Shown: positions 14,811 through 59,143, counted from the first letter of the stretch. The stretch: DNA of 64,000 nucleotides from Octopus vulgaris (GCA_951406725.2 OX597823.1:50654001-50718000); one strand, 5' to 3'. Program-made: numbers and translations. Notes: generated by a model not told the origin, from the letters alone.

Positions 14811-14940
14811 GAAGGCGCATGACTCAGTGGTTAGAGCATCGAGCTTACGATCGTGATGATGAGAGTTCGAATCCCGGACCGGGCTGAGTATTGTGTTCTT
14901 GAGCAAGATACTTTATTTCACGTTGGTCCAGTTCAGCTGT
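14811..14940 (+). mobile_element. SINE family C, 5' part
   Basis: GGCGCATGACTCAGTGGTTAGAGC (A box) ... GAGTTCGAATCCC (B box). Confidence 0.8.
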
Positions 14941-15300
14941 CGTCAGCTGGCTTATTTGAACCAAAAAATCGAAGAATTGAGGCCGGAGATTGCTAACGGA
15001 GATTGGTTGGAATCTCTTAACCATCTACCATATTCTCCTGATATTGTGGCATCCAACTACCACCTGTTTTTGTCTCTAAAGAACTCATTGAAAGGAAAAA
15101 CATTTAACGATTTAACATTTAACGATGGAGTCAAAACGTATCTAAACTATTTTTCTTCAAAACCAGTCAAATTTTACGTTGATGGAATATTTAAACCACC
15201 TGATAGATGGGCAAAGGTCATTAATAATAATGTAAAATATTTCATTGAATAAAATTTATTGAAAGGTCAATTATTTACATCTTTTTGTATATTAAAAACT
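14941..15300 (+). pseudogene. Mariner transposase C-terminal fragment
   Basis: HLPYSPDIVASNYHLF...FYVDGIFKPPDRWAKVINNNVKYF (YSPDLAP-D motif variant). Confidence 0.9.
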
Positions 15301-25875: not shown

Positions 25876-26327
25876 TAAGAACATACTTACTAATTTACAC
25901 ACACTAAGTTCATACTTATTGTATATTTTCTCAGATACTGTAAATAAGGTAGTAATCTACATCAAAATAAATTAAAGATGGAAGTAATCCACATGGTTCC
26001 AAGAATTGAATACGTTTTGTGCTGTGAAGGTGAAGTAAAGCCTAACGTTTTGAACATAAATCTATTTGTAGCAATTCGTAGTTTTACTGCTAAATGTTAA
26101 CACCTCTATATATTTTTTTCTTTTCGATAAATGTCACTTCTCCGAAACGTTGAACTTCTGTCTTTTTTTTTGCACGGCATAAAATATATTTCACTGTTTG
26201 AATCATTTGTATTACATGTTTGCTGATGCACAGCATCGTTAGCGTTTTCTAATTCTACTATTTTACTAAATGCACATGTCAATTCTTACATACCGCTCAA
26301 TATATAAACACAAAAACCGAAAGAACT

Positions 26328-26610
26328 ATGAACTGCAGAAGCGGAAATTCAATATGCTGCGTCAAATGCCCGAATTCTGAAGAGATATACGTTGGTCAGA
26401 CTGGGAATAGATTATCTGAACATTCACATGTGCACCGACAACAAATTAAGTACCGTGATATCCGTCAGATCCTTTTAAGTGACCATCTGGCAACATGTGG
26501 TCAGAAAAAGTTTATAATATTCTCATTCTACAATCTTTACAACTGAAAGGAAGTCGAAAGAACAAATTCAAGAAAATAATTTTCTTGATAGATTCACACC
26601 TATTTTAAAT
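26328..26610 (+). pseudogene. Penelope-like element GIY-YIG endonuclease 3' fragment
   Basis: NCRSGNSICCVKCPNSEEIYVGQTGNRLSEHSHVHRQQI...LSDHLATC, continuing to ...RFTPILN; followed by (TAA)n. Confidence 0.8.
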
Positions 26611-29908: not shown

Positions 29909-29978
<70 letters not shown>

Positions 29979-30050
29979 GGTATGTAGAAAAATACAACAT
30001 GGACAAGAACGTATAACTCTTAGAAGACGACACAATAAACACGGACAGGA

Positions 30051-30215
30051 CATTCGAAACCCTCAGTCTTCAGTCAAGAACCGGATCATCGTAGTAATTT
30101 CGGCTGATTAATCTTGAGATTACTAGATCACGGCCAGCCCTCCAAGAAAAACCAAGCAACAAGCATTAGAAAAACTAAGCTGGAAGCGTAGATTTCCTGG
30201 AAGAAGGATCGAATG
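30051..30215 (-). ncRNA. Permuted hammerhead-like motif, copy 1 (core 30067-30139; predicted cut 30118/30117)
   Basis: Minus: GGCTGG CCGTGATC TAGTAAT C TCAAGA TTAA TCAGCC GAA ATTACTA CGAT GATCCGG T TCTTGA CTGAAGA. Confidence 0.7.
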
Positions 30216-30909
30216 CATACGAACACCAGGACAGCAAAAGGGACAGATATAAAAAAACAAAAAACAATAATGGAATACAGAAACATGAAATACAGAAGCA
30301 TTAACGGTGAAAACAACAGTGTCTTACGACTGATAACAAGCAAACAAATTTTTTCTCTGGCGCAATGGAAAAAGCCTTTATAGTGGCGGACGAAAACAGC
30401 GATGTTAACAAGACAAGGGTCAGAAGCTGAAAGGCAGATTTCGGCCAACAGTCACGTGACAGAGAAGAGGGAAAAGAAAAGAAAGGGAAGCAAAGGAAGA
30501 GAGAGAGAGAGGAGAGAGAGAGAGGAGGGACAAACGCAACAAAGAGAGAGAAGAGAGAGAAAGAAGGAATCAGAGAGGAGAAGGGATGGGTGTCGAAGAA
30601 TGACCTGTGAGTGCAGAGCGAGACAAAGAAATAGGAGGGTAGTGGAAGACTAGACCAAAGAATCAGAGGAAAGAGAAGAGAAAAAGAGGATGAGTAGAGA
30701 GAAAAGAGAGAGAGAGGGGGACAGATCAAGTAAAAATGAGAGAGAGAGAGAGACAAACAGAGAGTCGTACCAATTATTAAGAATATGTGCTCACATAAAT
30801 GTTAAGGGGGGTACGGGGCGCCTGGAATATATGTTAAGGTATGTAGAAAAATACAACATGGACAAGAACGTATAACTCTTAGAAGACGACACAATAAACA
30901 CGGACAGGA

Positions 30910-31074
30910 CATTCGAAACCCTCAGTCTTCAGTCAAGAACCGGATCATCGTAGTAATTTCGGCTGATTAATCTTGAGATTACTAGATCACGGCCAGCCCT
31001 CCAAGAAAAACCAAGCAACAAGCATTAGAAAAACTAAGCTGGAAGCGTAGATTTCCTGGAAGAAGGATCGAATG
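30910..31074 (-). ncRNA. Permuted hammerhead-like motif, copy 2 (core 30926-30998)
   Basis: Identical to copy 1. Confidence 0.7.
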
Positions 31075-31353
31075 CATACGAACACCAGGACAGCAAAAGG
31101 GACAGATATAAAAAAACAAAAAACAATAATGGAATACAGAAACATGAAATACAGAAGCATTAACGGTGAAAACAACAGTGTCTTACGACTGATAACAAGC
31201 AAACAAATTTTTTCTCTGGCGCAATGGAAAAAGCCTTTATAGTGGCGGACGAAAACAGCGATGTTAACAAGACAAGGGTCAGAAGCTGAAAGGCAGATTT
31301 CGGCCAACAGTCACGTGACAGAGAAGAGGGAAAAGAAAAGAAAGGGAAGCAAA

Positions 31354-31387
<34 letters not shown>

Positions 31388-31768
31388 GGACAAACGCAAC
31401 AAAGAGAGAGAAGAGAGAGAAAGAAGGAATCAGAGAGGAGAAGGGATGGGTGTCGAAGAATGACCTGTGAGTGCAGAGCGAGACAAAGAAATAGGAGGGT
31501 AGTGGAAGACTAGACCAAAGAATCAGAGGAAAGAGAAGAGAAAAAGAGGATGAGTAGAGAGAAAAGAGAGAGAGGGGGGACAGATCAAGTAAAAATGAGA
31601 GAGAGAGAGAGACAAACAGAGAGTCGTACCAATTATTAAGAATATGTGCTCACATAAATGTTAAGGGGGGTACGGGGCGCCTGGAATATATGTTAAGGTA
31701 TGTAGAAAAATACAACATGGACAAGAACGTATAACTCTTAGAAGACGACACAATAAACACGGACAGGA

Positions 31769-31933
31769 CATTCGAAACCCTCAGTCTTCAGTCAAGAACC
31801 GGATCATCGTAGTAATTTCGGCTGATTAATCTTGAGATTACTAGATCACGGCCAGCCCTCCAAGAAAAACCAAGCAACAAGCATTAGAAAAACTAAGCTG
31901 GAAGCGTAGATTTCCTGGAAGAAGGATCGAATG
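31769..31933 (-). ncRNA. Permuted hammerhead-like motif, copy 3 (core 31785-31857)
   Basis: Identical to copy 1. Confidence 0.7.
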
Positions 31934-32629
31934 CATACGAACACCAGGACAGCAAAAGGGACAGATATAAAAAAACAAAAAACAATAATGGAATACAGAA
32001 ACATGAAATACAGAAGCATTAACGGTGAAAACAACAGTGTCTTACGACTGATAACAAGCAAACAAATTTTTTCTCTGGCGCAATGGAAAAAGCCTTTATA
32101 GTGGCGGACGAAAACAGCGATGTTAACAAGACAAGGGTCAGAAGCTGAAAGGCAGATTTCGGCCAACAGTCACGTGACAGAGAAGAGGGAAAAGAAAAGA
32201 AAGGGAAGCAAAGGAAGAGAGAGAGAGAGGGAGAGAGAGAGAGGAGGGACAAACGCAACAAAGAGAGAGAAGAGAGAGAAAGAAGGAATCAGAGAGGAGA
32301 AGGGATGGGTGTCGAAGAATGACCTGTGAGTGCAGAGCGAGACAAAGAAATAGGAGGGTAGTGGAAGACTAGACCAAAGAATCAGAGGAAAGAGAAGAGA
32401 AAAAGAGGATGAGTAGAGAGAAAAGAGAGAGAGAGGGGGGACAGATCAAGTAAAAATGAGAGAGAGAGAGAGACAAACAGAGAGTCGTACCAATTATTAA
32501 GAATATGTGCTCACATAAATGTTAAGGGGGGTACGGGGCGCCTGGAATATATGTTAAGGTATGTAGAAAAATACAACATGGACAAGAACGTATAACTCTT
32601 AGAAGACGACACAATAAACACGGACAGGA

Positions 32630-32794
32630 CATTCGAAACCCTCAGTCTTCAGTCAAGAACCGGATCATCGTAGTAATTTCGGCTGATTAATCTTGAGATT
32701 ACTAGATCACGGCCAGCCCTCCAAGAAAAACCAAGCAACAAGCATTAGAAAAACTAAGCTGGAAGCGTAGATTTCCTGGAAGAAGGATCGAATG
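32630..32794 (-). ncRNA. Permuted hammerhead-like motif, copy 4 (core 32646-32718)
   Basis: Identical to copy 1. Confidence 0.7.
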
Positions 32795-33640
32795 CATACG
32801 AACACCAGGACAGCAAAAGGGACAGATATAAAAAAACAAAAAACAATAATGGAATACAGAAACATGAAATACAGAAGCATTAACGGTGAAAACAACAGTG
32901 TCTTACGACTGATAACAAGCAAACAAATTTTTTCTCTGGCGCAATGGAAAAAGCCTTTATAGTGGCGGACGAAAACAGCGATGTTAACAAGACAAGGGTC
33001 AGAAGCTGAAAGGCAGATTTCGGCCAACAGTCACGTGACAGAGAAGAGGGAAAAGAAAAGAAAGAGAAGCAAAGGAAGAGAGAGAGAGAGGAGAGAGAGA
33101 GAGAGGGACAAACGCAACAAAGAGAGAGAAGAGAGAGAAAGAAGGAATCAGAGAGGAGAAGGGATGGGTGTCGAAGAATGACCTGTGAGTGCAGAGCGAG
33201 ACAAAGAAATAGGAGGGTAGTGGAAGACTAGACCAAAGAATCAGAGGAAAGAGAAGAGAAAAAGAGGATGAGTAGAGAGAAAAGAGAGAGAGAGGGGGAC
33301 AGATCAAGTAAAAATGAGAGAGAGAGAGAGACAAACAGAGAGTCGTACCAATTATTAAGAATATGTGCTCACATATATATATATATATATATGTGTGTGT
33401 GTTTGTATATTTGAGGATTTTGTGTATATACATCACATCCATCCATCCATCCATCCATCCATCCATACCATACATACATACATACATACATACATACATG
33501 CGTACATCTAAATATGAAGAGAAGTGCAATTTGCGATATTTTGAGTTTATGTACTTTCCATATATTTATACCAACGCGGATATTCAGGAAGCATTTGAGA
33601 CATTCGCACACACACATACGCATACACGCACGCACACACA

Positions 33641-54221: not shown

Positions 54222-54379
54222 CTTTATTTTAAGCAGCAGAAAATTCAACAAAATCTGTTACTCTGAGTTTCTCGTTGCCGTTCATCAGACACTTTTTGCT
54301 TGCAAAAACTGTCTGATGAACGGCAACGAGAAACTCAGAGTAACAGATTTTGTTGAATTTTCTGCTGCTTAAAATAAAG
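54222..54379. repeat. Near-perfect 158-bp palindrome
   Basis: Arms CTTTATTTTAAGCAGCAG...CATCAGACAC and reverse complement; 1 mismatch near the centre. Confidence 0.95.
54305..54351 (+). ncRNA. Type I minimal hammerhead ribozyme (mirror copy on minus strand at ~54250-54296)
   Basis: CTGT CTGATGA a-CG-GCAA-CG-a GAA ACTC a GAGT A^ACAG: stem I CTGT/ACAG, GNRA-capped stem II, stem III ACTC/GAGT, GUA triplet. Confidence 0.8.
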
Positions 54380-54992: not shown

Positions 54993-55445
54993 CGGAATAT
55001 AGATGTTGGTTTGACCGCCGTCCGTGCAACATCTATATTCCTCCCTGTGCCTGTCAAACCTTGTATCCCTGCCGTAAGGCCTTATTTCCATGCACACCAG
55101 CTTAATTTAATTCGTCCTTAGTCGAAAGACACCTGTTTTTATGTCCTGTTATTTGTATTTGTGAAACATACTCCGTTATTTTTCAGTCCTTGTTTTCGTA
55201 TACATTCGCTGCTTTCTTCCAAGGAATCTAATGCTCTTAGATTAGTTTTTCATTGGGGCTGGCCAGATTGGAGCAATCTCGAGTATAACCAGCCGAAGTT
55301 GCAAAGATAATCTGGAACTCGACTGAAGAAAGAAAACTCCGAATGACCCGTCCTTGTTTTCTTTGTATCGTCTATCTGGATTTTTTGCTGTCCCTTTTTT
55401 GTTTCACCTAACTCTCTGGATGTTTTACGTTCTTGTCCCATTTTG
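54993..55445 (+). mobile_element. Retrozyme-like element (subfamily 1-related), single diverged copy
   Basis: Homologous to the array unit: GTCGAAAGACAC, CATTCG, motif core, CGAATG, ACGTTCTTGTCC; ends in (TA)/(TG)n. Confidence 0.75.
55203..55345 (+). ncRNA. Permuted hammerhead-like motif (core 55257-55329; predicted cut after 55278)
   Basis: GGCTGG CCAGATTG GAGCAAT C TCGAGT ATAA CCAGCC GAA GTTGCAA AGAT AATCTGG A ACTCGA CTGAAGA; 73 nt, collinear with the array motif. Confidence 0.7.
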
Positions 55446-57978: not shown

Positions 57979-59143
57979 TAGGTCTGATCAATAAGCAATC
58001 GGACTGGTGCTATAAAAGCAATACTACAACACGTACCAATTCGGCATTTAATCTCCTACAAAGTAGCCCCCCTCAGAAGCCACACACTTAATCCAGTGCT
58101 GTTTCCATTGATGGAAGAATTCCTGGAACTCGCTTTCTGGGATACTCAGCAGCTATTTCGTCGCATTCGCATTCATTTCCTTGTCGTCCTGAAATCTTCT
58201 TCCTTTCAAGCGGGATTTTGGTTTTTGGAAAGAGGAAAAAGTCGCAAGGGACGAGATCTGGGGAATGCGGTGGCTGTCAGACCTGGGTTATGCCGTGCCT
58301 AACCAAAAACTGCTGCACAAGCTGCACTGAATGGGCAGGTGCTTTGTCAGCTGAAAGTAGTTTTGGCACAAACTTGGCAGACACACGTATCATACTCAAA
58401 TCTTCGGTGATAATGGACTGAACTGAACCGTATCTAATCTGCACATCTTCTGATAGCTCCTGGATGGTGATTCGACGATTTCCCCTCACAGCTGCACGCA
58501 CATGTGCGATGTTTTTCTCAGTTCTGCTGGATGCAATTCTCGTAGAACGCTCGTCACTGTCGACAATTTCCCGGCTCGTACACACCTCTCCATACACTTC
58601 CATATTTCTTTATTGCCCCCCAAGGGGCTAAACATAGAGGGGACAAACAAGGACAGACAAAGGGATTAAGTCGATTACATCGACCCCAGTGCGTAACTGG
58701 TATTAATTTATCTATACCGAGAGGATGAAAGGCAAAGTCGACCTCGGCGGAATTTGAACTCAGAACGTAGCGGCAGACGAAATACCACTAAGCATTTCAC
58801 CCGGCGTGCTAACGTTTCTGCCAGCTCTCTGCCTTATACTTACACTTACTCTCTTTACATTTTCTGCAACTTTGCACAGGCCTCTGAACAGGTATCGCCA
58901 AGCTTTTGGTAAAATTTGATGCAGATTCCCTGCACAACTTCTCTGCCATGGTCAATGTGAAGATCACATGTTACACACGTTCTATCCAAGCAGCGCTGTA
59001 AACAACGGAAGTGAGCTAGAACGTTAAAACTTAATGCGCGTGCACAGCAGAGTTCAAGGTCAATTTGTGCCAAGCAGCTTCACTCTGCGTGCTTTAGCTT
59101 CGTTACTATAGCAACAGTCCTGATACTTATTGATCAGACCACT
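57978..59143 (-). mobile_element. Defective mariner element with both TIRs, interrupted by a SINE
   Basis: TIRs GGTCTGATCAATAAG / CTTATTGATCAGACC; minus ORFs CIKFYQKLGDTCSEA, RRITIQELSE..GSVQSIITEDLSMIRVSAKFVPKLLS, PHSPDLVPCD. Confidence 0.9.
58603..58834 (-). mobile_element. SINE family A nested in mariner
   Basis: Near-consensus copy. Confidence 0.92.

Follow-up and report, generated by a model that had tools for sequence, protein, structure and literature searches.

Can a hammerhead ribozyme be built from a chain that is opened inside its catalytic core, and would such a ribozyme fold within one molecule or be assembled from two? Both questions are raised by a tandem repeat in a 64,000-nt stretch of the Octopus vulgaris genome (GCA_951406725.2, OX597823.1:50654001-50718000; the whole stretch is called the window below, and positions are counted from its first letter). 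Read from the sequence, the parts and their register, the compensatory changes and the distribution of the layout among the tails of Naiad Penelope-like elements show that no part of a hammerhead is missing from any repeat unit, that the chain is open between A9 and G10.1, and that the motif is a new wiring of a known ribozyme class. A sequence-only reading had proposed that geometry makes this motif an obligate dimer, over an interval (30067..30998) that runs from the core of unit 1 through the 5′ strand of stem II (II-5′) of unit 2. We regard the dimer hypothesis as a serious one and slightly the favourite, while "obligate" is probably an overstatement.

Hammerhead parts in each repeat unit

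The array comprises three full units of 859-861 nt and one 5′-truncated unit (~820 nt), is non-coding and is flanked on both sides by (TA)n runs. By self-BLAST its units are 99.6-100% identical with 6 variable columns, and the predicted hammerhead motif is present in all four of them, the motif of unit 2 being equal to that of unit 1 over 145 aligned nt. One diverged copy lies further along the window and is called the 55.3-kb copy.

29974..33378, minus strand: tandem array
30909..31074, minus strand: unit 2 copy of the motif, offset by +859; II-5′ starts at 30998, core at 30932
31768..31933, minus strand: motif of unit 3, with its core at 31791 (from the unit alignment)
32629..32794, minus strand: motif of unit 4, with its core at 32652 (from the unit alignment)
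55205..55356, plus strand: diverged single copy of the motif, ~70% identical to the array, with a private G at position 15.1 and a standard kink-turn sequence at the III/b junction

Along the minus strand, the order in each unit is GGCUGG (II-5′), the 5′ strands of helix b and of stem III, AUC, stem I, UUAA, the 3′ strand of stem II (II-3′), GAA, the 3′ strand of III, a bulge, the 3′ strand of b, 1 nt, the stem I partner and CUGAAGA. Using the blocks S, G and C defined by Eckert et al. 2023 (PMC10085705), who validated the hammerhead types SGC and CSG, unit 1 is divided as follows.

30203..30215, minus strand: helix a, 5′ strand (30207-30203) and its outer extension (30215-30209), from the pair table and the minimum free energy (MFE) fold
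30140..30202, minus strand: hairpin a′, in which 30202-30193 form 10 bp with 30149-30140; G10.1 follows it with 0 nt between
30134..30139, minus strand: stem II 5′ strand GGCUGG, from G10.1 onward, detached from A9; 6 of 6 pairs with 30107-30102; kept upstream in other copies
30124..30133, minus strand: helix b 5′ strand (30133-30126), followed by the shorter strand of the III/b junction, which reads UA here and GGA in the 55.3-kb copy
30112..30123, minus strand: block S, with the III 5′ strand (30123-30119), AUC with C17 at 30118, and stem I (30117-30112)
30094..30111, minus strand: UUAA (30111-30108) and block G, with II-3′ (30107-30102), GAA (30101-30099) and the III 3′ strand (30098-30094)
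30080..30093, minus strand: long junction strand (3-nt bulge plus GAU, kink-turn-like), b 3′ strand (30087-30081) and a 1-nt link
30067..30079, minus strand: stem I partner (30079-30074) and the CUGAAGA core (C3-A9, 30073-30067)
30050..30066, minus strand: two free bases, helix a 3′ strand (30064-30060) and its extension (pair table)

CUGAnGA, GAAA and a UH site with A15.1-U16.1 thus stand in register with the three stems (I, II, III), as in any hammerhead, and hammerhead numbering would place the cut between 30118 and 30117. What sets the motif apart is that A9 and G10.1 are not joined directly or through 1-2 nt: G10.1 sits 72 nt upstream of A9, and helices a and a′ bridge the gap. All strands named by the sequence-only reading are present on the minus strand of every unit, with the tethers it gave, 0 nt from II-5′ to the 5′ strand of b and 1 nt from b to the stem I partner. 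Its assignment of II-5′ also holds up, since GGCUGR is conserved upstream in the other copies while the sequence after CUGAnGA diverges among the subfamilies. The length it gave for b plus III, about 14 bp, is right as well (7 bp each), although this is not a plain rod because a 4-nt bulge or an open 2x6 loop separates the two helices; stem III itself has 5 bp, or 7 bp if the flanking UA/UA pairs form. The predicted pair probabilities are 0.73 (mean) for helix a and 0.92 for hairpin a′ in the array, and 0.42 and 0.39, respectively, in the 55.3-kb copy. Folding z-scores of 73-126-nt pieces are near zero. Compared with the 55.3-kb copy, the array has ~23 nt more in the loop of hairpin a′ (30150-30192, minus strand), and part of the region around the a′ 3′ strand is duplicated inside this loop.

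Four other ways of accounting for the sequence around CUGAAGA were considered and rejected. The loss of two G residues after CUGAAGA from a canonical SGC ribozyme does not fit, because at that place a stem II partner is missing from the other copies too, and GGCUGR is retained upstream in them. If the downstream GAAUGUC belonged to a degenerate minimal Penelope hammerhead, a stem I partner should follow, and none does; GAAUGUC pairs with an upstream strand and extends helix a. Local pairing of the bases after A9 with the U-rich strand just before GGCUGG is superseded by a/a′, which is conserved across families, and splicing that would join A9 to G10.1 is contradicted by the lack of a GT after A9.

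Covariation and chance expectation

The comparison of the 55.3-kb copy with the array argues for these pairings. Both-side (compensatory) changes are found in two pairs of stem I, one of III, two of b, one of a′ and one of a, and the end pair of stem II is G-U in the array and G-C in the 55.3-kb copy. The hammerhead stems covary in this sense, I and III by compensatory changes and II by G-U/G-C, and the stems of the Naiad tails described below are unrelated in sequence. A caveat applies to one stem I swap, which falls in two CpG sites and may be decay, and one X18 contig seems to have one side only. Among other copies, which are unphased, the stem II pair also occurs as A-U, as read from its 5′ side, and the innermost pair of b as C-G/U-A. 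The strand spacings of 26 and 25 nt are common to the array and the 55.3-kb copy. In three subfamilies the bases after CUGAnGA never pair with II-3′, so that block C is interrupted in each of them.

Sequencing depth in the DNA run X3 provides a further view of the family. In the 55.3-kb copy 7 of the 8 pairs of hairpin a′ form, and the pairing letter at 55252 is present in 86% of X3 depth. Core position 7 (55327) is A or G in the family, with G in 79% of X3 depth among the matches listed (40 of 304), and position 15.1 (55298), a G in the 55.3-kb copy, is A in >99% of X3 depth among the matches listed. The third bulge base (30091) is variable, with 40% and 29% other letters in X3. In run X5, which we guess to be RNA, about half of the depth over 55299-55350 carries subfamily letters that are rare in X3, and this may reflect preferential expression.

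A UH site with a 5-bp stem III and a 6-bp stem I in fixed register arose in 11 of 2,000,000 shuffles of the array and in 5 of 2,000,000 of the 55.3-kb copy, where only variable positions were permuted. All five matches to the bare sequence pattern in the window have stems I and III of at least 4 bp. The same was true of none of 119 metagenome loci with the pattern, from a scan that covered 42 of 64 parts. Among 120 viral loci with it (scan of 19 of 64 parts), no case of a III of 4 and a I of 5 bp occurred. Rfam gave no match at the gathering score across the whole window, and no printed description of the split-core layout was found in the literature searched, most subscription journals being outside its coverage.

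Relation to known hammerheads

The closest relatives of this wiring are the hammerheads of types SGC and CSG, in which a short linker connects stems I and II and a helix joins their outer strands (PMC10085705). The octopus unit shares with them the cyclic order S-G-C, the short linker (~3 nt there, UUAA = 4 nt here), the helix joining the outer strands of I and II (b, 7 bp here, with its two compensatory changes), and the very short link by which this bracing helix is tied to the far end of stem III; helix b is the "interaction" helix of these types. It differs in that block C is opened at A9/G10.1 and bridged by a/a′, in that both b-III strands are continuous whereas only one is in SGC and CSG, and in its location in an animal genome repeat. 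In the portions of the 2023 survey considered here, SGC was found only in metatranscriptomes and CSG in metagenomes; its authors themselves flag as a puzzle the 0-2-nt links to stem III, and ribozymes with such links cleave co-transcriptionally (PMC10085705). The sequence-only reading had named double hammerheads and the VS ribozyme as precedents for action in trans or as a dimer. Neither is the nearest relative, which is to be sought in the non-circularly permuted SGC/CSG hammerheads, whose authors raised the same short-linker question. The Varkud satellite (VS) ribozyme also acts between units, the catalytic part of one receiving a substrate stem-loop from a second; the analogy is functional only, fold and catalytic core being unrelated.

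Considered together with the double hammerhead are the minimal type-I hammerheads of Penelope-like elements, which are silent as single motifs and weakly active as dimers or trimers (Cervera and de la Pena 2014, PMC4209133). They resemble the octopus unit in their tandem retroelement context and in that two units have been proposed for activity, but their dimer forms via a short palindromic stem III (PMC4209133). Stem III of the octopus unit is stable (5-7 bp) and non-palindromic, and a dimer would rather form by docking of a loop on an internal loop through stems I and II. Penelope hammerheads have a conserved additional base at the A9/G10.1 step, which therefore tolerates insertion (PMC4209133). 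The non-LTR (non-long terminal repeat) retrozymes of metazoans likewise consist of non-coding tandem units of low GC content with one hammerhead each, probably mobilised by Penelope-type enzymes through RNA circles; unlike the split permuted form in 859 nt, theirs are type-I hammerheads in units of 150-450 nt (PMC7229834; bioRxiv 10.64898/2026.07.22.740005). The window itself also holds an inverted pair of canonical hammerheads at 54244-54357 (cores at 54288, minus strand, and 54313, plus strand), typical of an inverted terminal repeat and laid out like the Hydra-clade Penelope hammerheads in File S2 of PMC8557442.

The split layout in Naiad elements

Naiads are Penelope-like elements that insert in (TA)n and form partial tandems; the parts of the original report considered here describe them as lacking hammerheads (Craig et al. 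2021, bioRxiv 10.1101/2021.04.23.441226 / PMC8557442), and File S1 of PMC8557442 labels many of them HHR_core or HHR_half_core. We read by eye the last 330-600 nt of 52 of the 54 Naiad consensi (all except Bfor and Cmel). The split layout, with unrelated stem sequences, was recognised in 7 of the 52 tails from four lineages: three Acropora elements (Amil, Aacu, Anas), 3_Chem (Clytia-3), 2_Movir (Morbakka-2) and two of Octopus (Obim, Ovul). The Aacu motif has mismatches in stems I and II, and Naiad Esco carries a worn version of the layout. In these seven, helix a follows directly after A9 and a′ ends 0-1 nt before G10.1, helix a being weak in the Octopus pair; in the window motif helix a begins 0-2 nt after A9 and pairs far upstream. 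Stem III has 5-12 bp and b 5-10 bp, and in three cnidarian lineages the link on one strand is 0 nt. Across cnidarians and cephalopods the catalytic letters (CUGAnGA, GAAA, UH, A15.1-U16.1) are kept while the stems covary.

Among the other tails, type CSG was recognised in six from nematodes and type SGC in those of Sdum, Smim and 1_Dst, again by eye. The bracing helix of the nematode CSG tails has 11-18 bp with a 0-2-nt link to III, or 9-13 bp with a 7-16-nt link (File S5, PMC8557442). The three SGC Naiads have long structured inserts between S and G, the core of Sdum is U3-A8, and both spider elements have a palindromic stem III. In 32 of the 52 tails no hammerhead layout could be recognised within the visible 330-600 nt, and three more were left unparsed. 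At the place of the hammerhead, the 3′ ends of bivalve, hemichordate and some cnidarian Naiads carry another conserved motif (around GCTYAC...CACCTG).

The octopus array behaves like a Naiad insertion in its (TA)n target, its tandem units with a 5′-truncated copy and the motif near the 3′ end. Unlike a Naiad, which encodes an N-terminal GIY-YIG domain and a reverse transcriptase, the unit has no open reading frame: its longest stop-free frames (~107-188 aa) are of low complexity, and no Pfam match was obtained in two scanned frames of unit 1. Short motif searches of the supplement gave no match of the unit's stem sequences to the Naiad consensi, the displayed hits lying outside the Naiad file. 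Because the unit is non-coding and found no Naiad match in this search, its tie to the Naiads rests on the layout and the insertion pattern rather than on homology of sequence.

Geometry of one unit and of two

The claim that the partners of II-5′ and of stem I lie too far away to be reached in cis was examined with a coarse rigid-helix model made of ideal A-form cylinders, in which a penalty E is 0 when all links are met. Its inputs are A-form constants, of which the groove widths were checked, a short distance between the A9 and scissile phosphates and an allowed range of the I/II angle; the core, the k-turn (kink-turn) and trans docking each reach E 0 alone. A straight rod of b and III leaves a gap of 65-68 Å. 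With all pairs formed, closure in cis costs E 242 for the array and, among the Naiad forms, 192 for the coral, 679 for the jellyfish, 226 for the hydrozoan and 85 for Obim with a k-turn. Two units do close into reciprocal (C2) rings in each of the four cases tried: E is 7-15 at the window lengths, whether the junction is straight, bulged or kinked, and 7-9 in the three cnidarian forms, and most of what is left of it comes from clash. Within this model the best support for the dimer idea is a contrast in reach along the path from II to III, which is sufficient in 5 of 6 nematode CSG forms (slack +2.5 to +99 Å; Ascaris −3 Å) whereas fully paired split forms show −18, −17, −7 and +3.6 Å.

Several observations weigh against a requirement for two units. 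The two window copies close in cis (E 0.6 and 12.9) once the junction loop is opened and a terminal pair of stem II frays; Naiad_Obim does so with the loop open (E 1.8), and the coral and jellyfish forms with four pairs opened (E 7.2 and 3.9). The hydrozoan (Clytia) form is still at E 43 with two pairs opened. The model gives E 60 for the lengths of CSG-1, which was tested and is active, and 167 for an SGC-type sequence. Values of 266, 82 and 41 are obtained for Hpol, Hcon and Asuum, nematode CSG forms whose reach is adequate. Since active or active-type controls also score as strained, the model is too strict, and an E below ~170 does not mean that a form is inactive. It is, moreover, a coarse model built without crystal coordinates of a hammerhead or a k-turn. 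The rod is not the dominant predicted fold, as a local stem II hairpin competes with it (0.56-0.78 for II against 0.13-0.21 for b), and a motif of k-turn type sits where solutions in cis need an acute bend (26-46 degrees for the window lengths). Finally, in the portions of Eckert et al. considered here, known alignments have no insertion of more than 1-2 nt between CUGAnGA and its stems, and block C was assumed to be uninterruptible (PMC10085705); a split core is on this account only putatively active. In this model closure in cis fails for every split-type family as long as all pairs stay formed, and becomes possible once one to four pairs or the junction loop open. Closure with frayed pairs, strained active controls and the kink-turn motif at III/b together make "obligate" too strong a word, and a strictly obligate dimer seems to us unlikely. 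The docking of the terminal loop of one unit into the internal loop of another fares better, in that two-unit rings do close, albeit in a coarse model that its controls show to be too strict.

Readings of the motif

What we infer beyond the sequence, namely catalysis, the stacking of a on a′, the number of units involved, circles and mobilisation, can be assembled as follows. In a tandem transcript the terminal loop of one unit would dock on the open internal loop of its neighbour, leading to cleavage and to unit-length RNA. Helices a and a′ would stack and hold A9 next to G10.1, helix b would brace stems I and II as in SGC/CSG ribozymes, and the III/b junction (a kink-turn, a bulge or an inserted hairpin, depending on the family) would let two units close into a ring in which both sites are cut. 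Cuts at successive sites would release an 859-nt RNA that may circularise, and an enzyme of Penelope type, probably one like that of Naiads, could then return copies of the circle to (TA)n. Copying of circles, as proposed for retrozymes (PMC7229834; bioRxiv 10.64898/2026.07.22.740005), would yield near-identical tandem units. From the modelling, we consider it evenly balanced whether the motif acts mainly through two units, with docking and a swap of strands taken together; docking between two neighbouring units with predicted cleavage is, taken separately, possible but a little short of an even call.

A tentative alternative, which we hold to be possible yet well short of even, is that the split core folds within one unit, the kink-turn or bulge of the III/b junction folding b beside stems II/III at the cost of a few frayed terminal pairs; stabilisation may come from a host protein that binds k-turns (15.5K/Snu13 family) or from a protein of the element, and the full rod would be a resting state. 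By the definition of PMC5061560, the III/b junction of the 55.3-kb copy has the sequence of a standard kink-turn (3-nt bulge, then G·A, A·G and U·G, with C-G at −1), sharing with known examples the 3-nt bulge followed by G·A and A·G, the G at −1n and the variable L3; that of Naiad_Obim and Naiad_Ovul is a box C/D-like kink-turn sequence with the bulge, both G·A pairs and A at −1n. The variable third bulge base is as expected for such a bend, the two window subfamilies have the same fixed spacings of 26 and 25 nt, and the kink-turn's included angle of ~50 degrees (PMC5061560) may be set beside the 26-46 degrees that solutions in cis need. The array junction is non-standard, however, with G·A then A·U, a shifted NC helix, no partner for 3b and U at 2n, the last of which is known from Kt-23 (PMC5061560). 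Nor do the cnidarian forms have a standard k-turn: one strand of their junctions has 0 nt, and the other carries an inserted hairpin or a bulge, of 7 nt if on the 3′ strand and of 5 nt if on the 5′ strand; they need 2-4 bp opened, the Clytia form remaining strained after two. With a k-turn imposed on the window lengths, closure in cis is still strained (E 174-299 over seven core twists); the best value is reached at b = 10 bp (E 87) although the natural b has 7 bp, and 2-3 frayed pairs are needed to bring E to 33, so the rigid-helix model does not bear out a k-turn alone as the solution of folding in cis. The SGC/CSG ribozymes with 0-2-nt links at the equivalent place, which cleave co-transcriptionally, would favour action by a single unit, but cleavage was measured during transcription and the portions of Eckert et al. 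examined contain no concentration series (PMC10085705), so these ribozymes do not settle the molecularity. A role for protein has a parallel in one Penelope hammerhead that cleaved only when protein was present (PMC11167929).

That parallel bears also on a further explanation, according to which the motif is hammerhead-shaped but does not cleave autonomously, serving as a protein-binding or packaging signal or needing the element's reverse transcriptase-endonuclease protein to cut. The Anolis Penelope hammerhead was uncut without protein, with no reads ending at its site in the portions of that work considered (PMC11167929), there is no Rfam match, and no tested precedent of an opened core was found in the literature searched. 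This explanation has to contend with catalytic letters that are kept across cnidarians and cephalopods while the stems covary and the free position 7 varies, and we hold it to be improbable. Still less probable, to the point of being a marginal candidate, is a strand-swapped double hammerhead in which stem I and the core come from unit n and stem II and GAAA from unit n+1, with III, b and a formed between units to give plain type-III junctions without core pseudoknots: its base pairs are identical to those of docking, and in the predicted MFE fold of the array motif a local stem II hairpin, which would be the first to form as the RNA is transcribed, is stacked on a′, but the UUAA linker (1 nt in Naiad_Obim) must span the tops of two cores and helix a must close a loop of ~700 nt.

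Implications

The split layout breaks the stated rule of hammerhead permutation by which block C is uninterruptible, and it places non-circular permutations in animal genomes, for which the parts of the 2023 survey considered here report none (PMC10085705). Standard descriptors are blind to these wirings, which is a possible reason why Naiads were reported without hammerheads. If two units are required for cleavage, the octopus motif would represent a new route to dimer-gated cleavage in which stem III need not be weak. This would be relevant to the way in which tandem precursors of Penelope-type elements and retrozymes are cut and their monomer circles preserved, and would address the short-linker question in SGC/CSG ribozymes. 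A bolder version, which we think doubtful, is that this is a fourth way to open the hammerhead ring, the catalytic strand being split at A9/G10.1 and its two halves fixed on a rod too stiff for them to meet their own loop, so that the ribozyme exists only as a two-unit ring. It would then act as a copy counter that cuts tandem transcripts and spares monomers, and would be the missing ribozyme of many Naiads, other lineages using SGC (spiders) or CSG (nematodes). If the two-unit ring is indeed the only active form, short-linker SGC ribozymes may also act as dimers.

Other features of the unit and the window

At least half of the words of the first 484 nt are present in 19 of the 24 listed runs, and a head-to-tail unit junction lies within one contig of run X4 (record 17). 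In related contigs the motif has several times the summed depth of the remainder of the unit, a figure that is not a copy number. No molecule ends show up at the predicted cut site in the contigs, which by their nature would not display them, and X20, the single run recorded as RNA, has no contig across the motif; neither point counts as evidence. Each unit also contains, at the place corresponding to 30374-30455 (minus strand), a TATA-like word TATAAAGG with a CACGTG box ~65 nt upstream, a possible internal polymerase II promoter; the TATA-like word is missing from the corresponding stretch of the 55.3-kb copy. A scan for bacterial promoters and terminators, of a type not apt for animal sequence, gave no match. 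The window as a whole is microsatellite-rich animal sequence. A broken reading frame at 26253-26610, with no Pfam hit at E 0.1, resembles by its motif the GIY-YIG endonuclease end of a Penelope-type element, and the frames at 14863-15249 (plus strand) and 58092-58609 resemble fragments of a mariner transposase.
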